Source: a virus
Lineage: Duplodnaviria; Heunggongvirae; Uroviricota; Caudoviricetes
DNA length: 35,879 nucleotides
IMG/VR virus record: IMGVR_UViG_2548877009_000012
Strand: one strand, 5' to 3'
Shown: in pieces, positions 12,001 through 15,000 of the stretch
Numbering within the stretch: position 1 is the stretch's first letter
Layout of the letters: each line of letters starts with the position of its first letter
Program-made: the position numbers

Positions 12001-15000
12001 ACTGGGAGAGCTGGCGGTCAAACGTTGGGCGTCAGGGTATGTGAGAATTTTTGACGAGGTAAATTTTCGATGGAAACCGTATTGCATGCACTGAAAGCGA
12101 TGGGTAAAGCCAATTCTGTTGAACTGGCGGCGCGGCTTGATATCAGCCGTGAAGAAGTTCTCAACGAACTGTGGGAACTCAAAAAAAATGGTGTTGTTGA
12201 TAAAACGGGTCACACCTGGTTTCTGGCTGTCGAAGGTGAATCCGGGGTAACCGAAGGGCAGGCACTACAATCTGAAGCGCCGGATGTGGTAACCGAAGAG
12301 GTCGCTCCAAAAGTTAGCGCTGACATGATGATTGAGTTTATCGCTCAGGAGGGGGCTAAAACCTGTGAAGAAATAGCGGGTAAGTTCGGAGTTACCACTC
12401 GTAAGGTTGCTTCCACTTTGGCGGTAGTAACAGCAACGGGGCGCCTGGTGCGCGTGTCTATCAAGGGAAAATTCCGTTATAAAGTGCCTGACGTCGAAAA
12501 CGGCGATTTGAGCGCGTCATCATCGCAGGATGAGAATATCACACACGAAGCAGAAAACAGCGCGTCAGGCGACGAACTGAATCGTTTTCCGTTGATGTCA
12601 GAGGGCACGGCAAAGGCCTGTACAGATGAGTTTATCCGGGATGTTCCGTCGTTCACCGAAAAATATGCTGGTGCAGTGACCCTTCCACCTCTACGGGCCG
12701 CCAGTCGTGAACTTCGTCGCGCCAAAAAACAGGTCCAGAAGTGGGAGCGTGTCTGTGCTGCACTACGTGAGCTGAATAAACACCGGGAACTTGTCATGCA
12801 GATTACCGATTCATCCAGCAGTATTGCATCGGAAAAGTGATAACTGGAGAGCTTATGGCAAAAGTATTTACACCCGAACAGCGGGAAGAACTGAAGGCAC
12901 GTATTGTGGAGCTCGTGCGCCTGAATGGTCGGGGAACGTTCAGGCAACTGGCTACTGAAACCGGAGTCAGCAAGACAGCTGTCAGACGTTTGTCCAGAGA
13001 ACTGGTTGTCAGTGGCGCTATATTCGACTCAGGTTATGGTTTATTCCCGTCTGATCAGGCGCGTAAGGACTGGCAAAATGCCCGCAAAAAACTCTCGAGA
13101 GCAAAGGCAAAGAAACCGGTTGTTATTGACCCTGGTCTTATCCGGGCATTACCTGATGGGGAAATCCGGCGCTACGACAGACGCTACAACATAATTTGTC
13201 GCGAGTGCCGTAACAGCGAAACGATGCAGCGTGTGCTGGCATTCTGGCGGGGGAGTGCAGAGGGATTGATGTTCTCCCCGTCGTGAATGACGGGGGCTTA
13301 CGTGTTCAGAAAAGTGATTCATATAGAGGGTGAATCTGATCTTTTTTGTTCACGTCTGGCTGCCACCATTGCAGGCAGAGTGAAGGCGTAGACTAAAAAC
13401 ATTTCGGTAAAACTCAGGATCTGGCTTGCCTCAATTGGTGTGAAAACTTCATCTGTATGAACTGCTTTATTGGCATCAATTCGTACAATATGAGCCCATT
13501 CCTTCATCTGTTCAGTGATCAGCCCTTTTTTGTAAATCATCTGAATACGTTGCGACAGCGATTCTTTTCCTGCTTCATCGCCGAGCAGTTTTTTCGTGGA
13601 GATATCGAGGACTCTGCGACAAAGAATTACCACTGTGTCGTACCGCCTCCTCTGTAAATCCTCTTTTGCCTCAACAAAAGTACGGTCTGCAACCGGGGGC
13701 GTATATTCTGGTGCGGTAATTTTTTTGACCGCAGGATAGATCTTGCGGAAACGGTACTGGCTATTTCCTGAAATCAGAATATCGAGGTCTTTTTTCTGGC
13801 TTTCCGCCATGGGGCCGTGATAGTGGTCTGATGGGATTTCAACAATAGCAACACCTCCTCGATGACAACTTCTGCATACAAAAGCGACGTTAAAAAGAGG
13901 TGTTTTTTCAATTTGTTTTTCGGCAAATGCCTCAATAACAGCTCGCTCTTTTAAACAGTGTGGGCATGTAATGTCAAAGGAGACTAAACTCATGGATATT
14001 CCTCTCGAAATTAAAGAAATTAACGAAATCATTGAGGTTACTGATCGCCCCGAGTTTACCCTCATGCGTCGTTATGAAACAGGAACCGACGAACAAAAAT
14101 ACATCATGGTTGCAGCATTGGCTGTGATGGCGATAGAAAGGGAGCGGAGGGAAAAGGACGTAATGGTTATTCCGGCGAGAAATGATTCACCGGATTTGAG
14201 ATGGCAGGATCCGGAGTGGGATGTGGCAATCCGGTGATTGATATTTCTCTGGGGTAAAGCGCCGCCAGAATGACGGCGCGGTGGTTAAGCATGAGGCGAA
14301 ATTTCTGCCGGGCGGTATTTTGTTGAGAGATGAGATACGTCAACTTCTCTTTCCGCTTTTTCAAGGCTCCATGCCGTCTGGAGACGAATCCATGAAGACG
14401 GAGTTCCACCCAGGACAGCAGCGAGACGAACAGCCATTTCAGGAGATATTGTCGCATTACCTGAAACCAGTCGCTGAACAGTGGAAGGCGCGACATCAAG
14501 CGCTCTTGCCAGTTCCCTGATTCCAATATTCTGATCTTCCAGAATATCAGCAATAATTTCTCCGGGATGAGGGGGGTTAAACATCGCCATTAGTGGTAAT
14601 CCTCGTAGTTAAGAATATAAGCATCGCCGTTCCGAAACTCGAATGTGATTCTCCAGTTACCGGAGACGGTGACAGACCATGTATCGGATCTGTCACCCTG
14701 CAACTGGTGCAGCCTGTACCCGGCAAGGTTAATATCATCAATGATTTCAGCTTGATCTATTACCTGAAGGCGCGTTCTCAGGCGTTTAACGTGATTGGGA
14801 TTTACGCCTGATGCATTTCCTGTTTCAAAGAAACGTTGAAGTCCTTTGTGTTTCCAGCTTTTTATCATGCTTGTTTCCTGTTGCGTTACGCGAATCATTA
14901 TAACAGGTGTTGTGATGTACGCAACACTGAATTTGACAAAAATAACCTTTCGGGGCTATATTCCTCAAACGCCAGCAAAATCTGGCGTCGGGATTGGCGT

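Follow-up and report, generated by a model that had tools for sequence, protein, structure and literature searches.

The window, as we call the whole 35,879-nucleotide stretch of viral DNA analysed here, carries a toxin-antitoxin (TA) pair in the accessory region of an Stx1a-converting lambdoid prophage of E. coli, between the replication and the nin/Q genes. ORF calling returned two intact genes on the minus strand, higB (14590-14868) and higA (14285-14590), which together fill the span and have the orientation given in the first-pass annotation. The toxin gene comes first, running from 14868 to 14590, and is followed by higA from 14590 to 14285 across a TAATG junction. At this point the minus strand reads CAC TAA TGG, and the A at 14590 is common to the TAA of higB and the ATG of higA, which bears out the claimed one-nucleotide overlap. 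The pair also lies antisense to the pR transcript, as had been proposed, on the strand opposite the cro, cII, replication, nin and Q genes. It is a canonical HigBA module that is already known to the databases: both genes are annotated by RefSeq/PGAP in identical STEC prophages (WP_000597785.1 for the toxin and WP_001240641.1 for the antitoxin), and PHROGs places both in its moron category, as TA toxin and TA antitoxin.

HigB is a protein of 92 residues that belongs to the RelE/ParE superfamily and, from its sequence, is predicted to act as an mRNA endonuclease dependent on the ribosome. It matched Pfam PF05015 with 76.7 bits (gathering cut-off 27; E 1.9e-21) over profile positions 1-91 of 91, and phrog_3066, “toxin of TA system”, with an E value of 6e-37. 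Its alignment with the HigB of plasmid Rts1 (PDB 4mct_B; E 3e-32) was gapless and full length, covering residues 1-92, with 56 of the 92 positions identical (61%). Catalytic roles in Rts1 HigB have been assigned to His54, Asp90, Tyr91 and His92, plus Arg73 (PMC5027501). In the alignment H54, N71, R73, D90, Y91 and H92 are all kept, while K57 is replaced by Q. A longer HigB of 102 residues, starting at the ATG at 14898, was considered and rejected: this ATG falls inside the TATAAT of a predicted -10 box and the homologues have 92 residues. The start at 14868 is preferred for the same reason, and because PGAP and the 92-residue Rts1 HigB agree on it.

HigA (101 residues) has an XRE-type helix-turn-helix. 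It scored 88.4 bits against the NCBIfam HigA equivalog TIGR02607 (cut-off 47.7), and the same NCBIfam search matched no HigB model. Pfam HTH_3 was also matched. The closest solved antitoxin was PDB 2icp (E 8e-28, residues 1-89), and Rts1 HigA (4mcx_A) was matched with an E value of 1e-19. These matches are far above chance, and the assignment of HigB to the RelE/ParE superfamily and of HigA to the XRE family is upheld. We consider it very nearly certain that an intact type II toxin-antitoxin of the Rts1 higBA type is present here, in its identity and its biochemical mechanism jointly.

Each gene is preceded by a Shine-Dalgarno sequence on the minus strand, AGGAAA at 14874-14879 for higB and GAGGA at about 14601-14605, within the 3' end of higB, for higA. 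The predicted higBA promoter (14897-14924, minus strand) consists of a -35 element TTGCGT (14924-14919), a 16-nt spacer and the extended -10 element TGtTATAAT (14904-14897). It was picked by eye from its perfect extended -10, the consensus promoter scan having missed it because the -35 matches the consensus in only three of six positions. Transcription would be expected to start near 14890. The TATAAT and everything downstream of it are identical in the GER2 prophage. An inverted repeat over the -35, GTGTTG-N9-CAACAC (14907-14927, minus strand), was found by eye and is a candidate HigA operator; in a two-sequence comparison its GTTG-N9-CAAC core was kept in GER2. A second palindrome, GCGTAACGC, also found by eye, lies near the predicted +1 (14883-14891). 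In Rts1, HigA and HigBA act through operators O1 and O2 at the promoter (PMC12266136), and the placement of the candidate operator over the promoter is analogous. The repeats themselves showed no recognisable similarity to the Rts1 operators and no match to their logic; the hig operators of P. vulgaris and E. coli already differ from each other (PMC12266136).

Just downstream of the higA stop codon lies a GC-rich hairpin on the minus strand (14259-14279), with a 9-bp stem followed by UUUA and a predicted folding energy of -16.5 kcal/mol (z -3.0). This hairpin probably terminates higBA transcription, and it is where the cassette has its left recombination joint. Its core, GCCGCCAGAATGACGGCGCGGT, is common to phages with differing left flanks, and in Shigella phage 75/02 Stx the same core has another TA on its right. 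Breakpoints in other phages fall at 14260-14285 and at about 14947. The prophage of FDAARGOS_944 has the ninE-isrK junction of VT2-Sakai with a clean insert of 691 bp that comprises the hairpin, higA, higB and the promoter. Comparison of this filled site with the empty site of VT2-Sakai shows that the moron, flanked by conserved genes, occurs whole or not at all. As judged from the sequence, higBA is a discrete, autonomous cassette of ~690 bp (14259-14948) with its own predicted promoter.

To the right of the cassette, and outside it, lies a plus-strand control module. Its sigma-70 promoter, TTGACA-18-TATATT (14933-14962), matches the consensus in 11 of 12 positions. This promoter and that of hig are placed back to back, the two -35 elements being 8 bp apart. 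Five phages whose upstream DNA is unrelated all have the same -35 TTGAC and -10 TATATT. The promoter is followed by the IsrK sRNA, or c4-a1b1 leader (14969-15046, plus strand). Rfam RF01394 (IsrK) matched 14969-15045 with 74.7 bits (GA 50), and RF03163 (c4-a1b1) matched 14956-15008 with 45.9 bits, slightly under its GA of 46.7. Next on the plus strand come a C4 antisense RNA of the P1/P7 immI type (15071-15154; RF01695, 66.7 bits, GA 45), with a predicted fold of -44.5 kcal/mol (z -4.2), and, as the cargo of the isrK-c4 module, an antirepressor gene with ORF6N and P22_AR_C domains (15207-15929; PF10543, 6e-19, and PF10548, 2.9e-9). The order promoter-IsrK-C4-antirepressor is the same in the window and in six other loci, and VT2-Sakai and P27, both lacking a TA, have the same isrK promoter and terminator. 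The hairpin and T-run reported at 15024-15046 on the plus strand are indeed present. This is the intrinsic terminator of IsrK, and the part of the first-pass annotation that counted it among the elements of the TA island does not hold.

On the other side, a DUF4145 gene (13319-13993, minus strand; Pfam) had been described as adjoining the pair. It is nearby but not contiguous, as an 81-residue ORF with a strong Shine-Dalgarno sequence (13992-14237, plus strand) lies in between. A single functional island on the minus strand, made up of the DUF4145 gene, higBA and the terminator at 15024-15046, is hardly credible. The features are close together and the DUF4145 gene and higBA share the minus strand; however, the terminator belongs to IsrK on the plus strand, and the plus-strand ORF splits the two minus-strand units. 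Other phages also have one module without the other, the breakpoint lying at the 14259-14279 hairpin: Shigella phage 75/02 Stx is 99.8% identical over the DUF4145 module up to 14285 and then carries a different TA, while higBA occurs with no DUF4145 gene in GER2, among others. The DUF4145 gene is a module of its own, and a recombination joint as well as the plus-strand ORF lies between it and higBA.

Intact higB is rare. It was found in 22 of 5426 complete E. coli genomes, compared with 68 for higA, and all 23 copies in these 22 genomes are chromosomal and annotated as intact. A divergent higB allele, with 92.5% DNA identity and located in a different lambdoid prophage, is intact as well. The 46 further genomes, mostly with PA2-type Stx2a phages, retain only higA and 22 nt of higB. 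The same was seen in phage records, 45 of 46 with this higA having no higB beyond those 22 nt. Of the phages and genomes with this higA allele, about two thirds have lost higB. The phages can therefore do without the toxin, which is possibly costly. Plasmid homologues of HigB are abundant (550 records, with up to 67% identity), and include those of Rts1-like Providencia plasmids. This abundance fits a maintenance function.

The slot upstream of isrK has three different occupants among phages. Where higBA occupies it, the pair stands back to back with isrK-c4 in all close relatives, whatever the other flank (the window, GER2, G1/2, FDAARGOS_944 and five IMG/VR contigs). A general linkage of HigB with isrK/c4 in phages was considered and rejected, as it was seen only in the five close relatives and isrK was adjacent in none of 36 distant phage-borne HigB loci. 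The linkage among the relatives is accordingly attributed to common descent of one cassette.

The explanation that best accounts for these observations, with a probability of roughly 0.7, is that the locus is an Rts1-type higBA cassette whose most likely role is addiction. If the Rts1 paradigm applies, a sigma-70 promoter with an extended -10 would produce a bicistronic higB-higA mRNA in the lysogen, and a HigA dimer would bind HigB, probably as HigB2-HigA2. The HigA dimer would also repress the promoter via overlapping operators. Once higBA expression stopped, the labile HigA would decay, and free HigB would then cleave A-rich codons of ribosome-bound mRNA and arrest growth. The net effect would be to stabilise the prophage, or the cassette itself, against loss; we give this role about even odds, and it is the likeliest of those considered. 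By analogy with Rts1, stabilisation of the prophage by higBA is plausible. Literature searches on higBA in Stx phages returned no functional study of this pair, and the selective value of addiction is uncertain here because loss is far rarer for an integrated prophage than for a plasmid.

Another possibility is abortive infection, in which a second phage would shut off host transcription or degrade HigA and the freed HigB would block translation before the invader could finish. Genes for defence are often found in the accessory slots of prophages, and protection against phages is known for several type II TAs. The exchange of this slot among phages, with its three occupants, is the kind of turnover typical of conflict loci. 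However, a PADLOC-DB scan gave no match for HigB and only weak, generic HTH components for HigA (E 3e-4 or worse), the literature searched gave no report of an Rts1-type HigBA conferring phage resistance, and a strong benefit in defence is hard to reconcile with how often higB has been lost. We regard this role as unlikely. It is more doubtful still that the pair is a switch coupled to induction, such that head-on or antisense transcription from the induced prophage would silence higBA and free HigB, or that HigA would co-regulate the isrK promoter. Either would tie the status of the TA to host shut-off or to the choice between lysis and lysogeny. The geometry is suggestive: higBA runs antisense to the early-right genes, head-on to the N-antiterminated pR transcript, and has a 70-bp control region in common with the promoter of the isrK-c4-antirepressor module, beside which it sits back to back in all close relatives. 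Against this, the isrK-c4-ant module has the same promoter in phages without higBA, and the association with isrK is absent from the distant HigB loci.

Equally doubtful is a functionless hitch-hiker, a recently acquired selfish remnant that has no effect on phage or host and is decaying towards the orphan-higA state. The excess of higA over higB among genomes and the phage records reduced to 22 nt of higB are what such decay would leave behind. Yet the window pair has two intact ORFs and still has its catalytic residues, with the Shine-Dalgarno sequences and the predicted promoter in place. All higB copies in complete genomes are likewise annotated as intact, and the intactness of the 92.5% allele in another prophage suggests purifying selection.

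The orphan antitoxins of the widespread PA2-type Stx2a phages (phi346/phi349, PA2 and VT2phi_272), HigA and ParD, were described in 2025 (PMC12502783). The orphan HigA differs from that of the window by one substitution, N5T. It could be speculated that the higBA of the window is the ancestral partner of this orphan and that the N5T protein is an anti-addiction or anti-TA factor which neutralises the HigB of a resident prophage, although we consider this quite unlikely. If it were true, the orphan HigA would let an Stx2a phage superinfect or displace higBA prophages. The use by a phage of a classical antitoxin against its cognate toxin is said not yet to have been verified (PMC12502783), and this would be the first case. 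In a weaker variant, HigA may also tune the abutting isrK-antirepressor promoter.

Since TA morons are well known in temperate phages, the pair is of limited importance in itself. The analysis corrects the annotation by moving the neighbouring terminator to IsrK/C4 antirepressor control, and it shows the slot upstream of the isrK-c4 module to be an exchange site for TA cassettes among Stx phages. It also identifies the likely origin of the orphan HigA of clinically important Stx2a phages and provides a concrete toxin partner to test. If higBA stabilises Stx1a prophages, this would be relevant to how stx persists in STEC lineages.

Among known systems, phage morons, a concept from HK97 and HK022, and the TAs that stabilise prophages or plasmid-prophages, such as phd-doc of P1, offer the general frame. 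Like the HK97/HK022-type morons, higBA forms an additional transcription unit that has entered between conserved genes of the phage and brings a (predicted) promoter and terminator of its own. A stabilising effect of higBA is putative. The neighbouring module resembles P1/P7 immI (c4 antisense RNA-icd-ant) and IsrK-orf45-anrP of Gifsy-1 (PMC4825925) in its promoter, IsrK/a1b1 leader, leaky terminator, C4 and antirepressor; higBA is not part of such a module and only adjoins it.

Among the closest systems is HigB-HigA of Rts1 from Proteus vulgaris (PDB 4MCT/4MCX/4YPB/6CHV), which shares the toxin-first operon, a HigB of 92 residues, an XRE-HTH HigA of about 100 residues (42% identity) and inverted repeats over the core elements of the promoter. 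It differs in being carried by a conjugative plasmid rather than a chromosomal lambdoid Stx prophage, in having Lys57 where the window HigB has Gln, and in its operator sequences. The HigA of E. coli CFT073 (PDB 2ICP/2ICT), the nearest antitoxin structure, is a different allele from a different locus. In Shigella phage 75/02 Stx this slot is filled by a TA that has the same orientation and toxin-first order, beside the same hairpin and DUF4145 module, but its Gp49-family toxin belongs to PF05973 rather than PF05015 and its XRE antitoxin is unrelated in sequence. The PA2-type orphan higA is a 99% identical allele in the same slot beside isrK-c4-ant, with the same hairpin. It keeps 22 nt from the 3' end of higB, among them the higA Shine-Dalgarno sequence, and has a lipoprotein-like ORF and an orphan parD in place of the rest of higB. 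Compared with this arrangement, the complete pair of the window is apparently the ancestral state.

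The sequence of the window is that of a lambdoid Shiga-toxin prophage of E. coli. An integrase, bet/exo/gam and a CI-like repressor (8439-9209, minus strand) are encoded, together with plus-strand cro-like and cII genes, replication genes of the DnaD/DnaC type, DUF1627 and DUF977 genes, the nin genes, Q (18242-18721) and, at about 20012-21247, stxAB. The Stx1a prophage of STEC strain 2014C-3338 matches most of its left two-thirds at 97-99.6% identity. The immunity region (7800-9658, with the CI-like repressor and cro-like gene) had no megablast match in this otherwise collinear prophage; the window therefore differs from it in immunity type while sharing its backbone.

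The higBA pair is flanked by the replication genes on one side and the nin/Q genes on the other, and is on the minus strand amid conserved genes that are all on the plus strand. As the first-pass annotation had proposed, it is a toxin-first HigB/HigA pair running opposite to the early genes. Both ORFs, higB (14590-14868, 92 aa) and higA (14285-14590, 101 aa), are intact and have one base in common at the junction CAC-TAA-TG. HigB matched the Pfam HigB-like_toxin model over its whole length (76.7 bits, cut-off 27) and aligned without gaps to the solved HigB structure of the Proteus vulgaris plasmid Rts1 (E 3e-32, 56 of 92 residues identical). His54, Asp90, Tyr91 and His92, which are essential for mRNA cleavage, and the transition-state stabiliser Arg73 (PMC5027501) are all kept, as is Asn71, while Lys57 is replaced by Gln. 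HigA passed the NCBIfam HigA equivalog cut-off (88.4 versus 47.7 bits) and matched the solved HigA proteins of E. coli CFT073 (2ICP, E 8e-28) and Rts1 (E 1e-19, 42% identity). Both genes carry PGAP names in RefSeq (WP_000597785.1 and WP_001240641.1), the GenBank record of phage GER2 labels its own copy “plasmid maintenance system killer HigB”, and PHROGs classes both proteins as moron TA components. The element was therefore already known: higBA is an ordinary, previously annotated pair that had been correctly identified.

Sequence comparisons with other phages indicate that higBA forms a cassette of its own, distinct from the DUF4145 gene with which it had been grouped in a single minus-strand island. 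In GER2, strain G1/2 and five IMG/VR contigs, the left neighbor of higBA is instead a BRO-N antirepressor gene. Conversely, Shigella phage 75/02 Stx shares window positions 13200-14285 (DUF977, DUF4145, an 81-aa plus-strand ORF and a hairpin) at 99.8% identity, but beyond the hairpin (3993-4554 of its locus L004) it encodes an unrelated toxin-first TA pair, a Gp49-family toxin (PF05973) with an XRE antitoxin. Stx phages therefore exchange TA modules at this position. A lambda-like prophage of strain FDAARGOS_944 has an intact, diverged higBA copy (92.5% DNA identity) and differs from the ninE-isrK junction of phage VT2-Sakai by exactly one 691-bp insertion comprising a hairpin, higA, higB and their promoter. 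In the window, the cassette extends from about 14259 to 14948. Since the hairpin core GCCGCCAGAATGACGGCGCGGT is common to phages that differ on either side, the hairpin serves as a recombination joint.

The DUF4145 gene (13319-13993, minus strand; phrog_1305, “DNA binding protein”) and the 81-aa ORF (13992-14237, plus strand; phrog_8371) are divergent, with start codons overlapping in CATG and the strong SD of each lying within the coding sequence of the other. The two move as one module, also found in Shigella phages 75/02 Stx and POCJ13, with a weak PADLOC match to PD-T7-4 (E 1.6e-3).

Nor does the terminator at 15024-15046, previously assigned to the same island, belong to higBA. This plus-strand hairpin and T-run terminates the IsrK sRNA (14969-15045, plus strand; Rfam 74.7 bits, GA 50). 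IsrK overlaps the c4-a1b1 target motif and is preceded by a near-consensus sigma-70 promoter (TTGACA-18-TATATT, 14933-14962) and followed on the same strand by the C4 antisense RNA (15071-15154; 66.7 bits, GA 45) and an ORF6N/P22_AR_C antirepressor gene (from 15207). Antirepressor control here is of the P1 immI/Gifsy-1 IsrK-AnrP type, in which some transcripts pass the IsrK terminator (PMC4825925). Phages VT2-Sakai and P27 have identical promoter hexamers, IsrK, terminator and C4 directly after ninE, with no TA of any kind beside the module; the terminator is therefore no boundary of a minus-strand island.

The complete immI-like module (14933-15929, plus strand) is kept at ≥99% identity in about 70 Stx phage records, VT2-Sakai included. 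Within IsrK, a direct repeat, GATAGAGACCGCGA / GATACACGCCGCGA (15005-15034, plus strand, 16-nt spacing), lies partly ahead of the terminator stem and partly inside it, and may be connected with the a1/b1 elements targeted by C4. A second antirepressor module (16053-16828, plus strand) consists of sRNA-Xcc1 (RF02221, 67.5 bits) and, immediately after it, a Bro-N/P22_AR_C ant gene (16184-16828); sRNA-Xcc1 also precedes the ant genes of 75/02 Stx and GER2. Compared with the otherwise near-identical 2014C-3338 prophage, the window has an insertion at 15760-16541.

Among 5426 complete E. coli genomes, higB of the window occurred in 22 (all copies chromosomal and annotated intact) and its higA allele in 68, 46 of which were without higB. 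The toxin is thus often lost and therefore dispensable. Among 50,697 phage records, this HigB was found only in GER2, with a 56% relative in Mannheimia phages, while higA at ≥99% identity was present in 46. In PA2-type Stx2a phages, identity to the window spans 14260-14612, covering higA and the final 22 nt of higB, where the GAGGA SD of higA lies; beyond this span, a lipoprotein-like ORF of 93 aa and an orphan ParD take the place of higB. In phi346, a phage of this type, positions 2526-3503 of the locus (L002), equivalent to 14285-14986 of the window, retain higA, its SD and the 22 nt of higB at 99% identity. Orphan HigA/ParD antitoxins were reported in phi346/phi349 in 2025, their relevance being described as unclear (PMC12502783). 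The window holds the complete pair, presumably the ancestral state. That the common orphan HigA of Stx2a phages probably descends from the higBA cassette, and could act against its HigB, is the only mildly novel lead of the analysis.

By homology, HigB would be a ribosome-dependent mRNA endonuclease, and HigA would neutralise it and repress their shared promoter; were expression lost, HigA would decay and HigB would arrest growth. The most likely effect, to which we give a probability of about one half, would be selfish addiction, stabilising the prophage or the cassette itself. We favor addiction because this role has been demonstrated for the closest characterised relative and because the family is abundant on plasmids (550 records with HigB homologues, identity up to 67%). 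Abortive infection, for which this analysis found no support, seems unlikely. It could also be speculated that higBA is coupled to induction, as the cassette is oriented against pR transcription and 8 bp separate its -35 from the -35 of the isrK promoter, but only this geometry suggests such a role, and we consider it quite improbable. The back-to-back arrangement with isrK occurs in all close relatives yet in 0 of 36 distant phage-borne HigB loci; descent from a single cassette is the best explanation.

The predicted promoter of the pair (minus strand) has a -35 TTGCGT (14924-14919), a 16-nt spacer and a perfect extended -10 TGtTATAAT (14904-14897), followed by AGGAAA (14879-14874) and the higB ATG at 14868; the -10 and everything downstream are identical in GER2. 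A longer HigB starting at ATG 14898 was rejected; this ATG falls within the -10 box, and the 92-aa HigB is therefore the real protein. Downstream of the higA stop, a GC-rich 9-bp hairpin followed by UUUA (14259-14279; -16.5 kcal/mol, z -3.0) is the probable terminator of the unit. Two candidate operator repeats are present: an inverted repeat, GTGTTG-N9-CAACAC (14927-14907), over the predicted -35, and a 9-bp palindrome, GCGTAACGC (14891-14883), at the expected transcription start. Their placement resembles that of the Rts1 hig operators O1 and O2, which overlap the -35 and -10 (PMC12266136).
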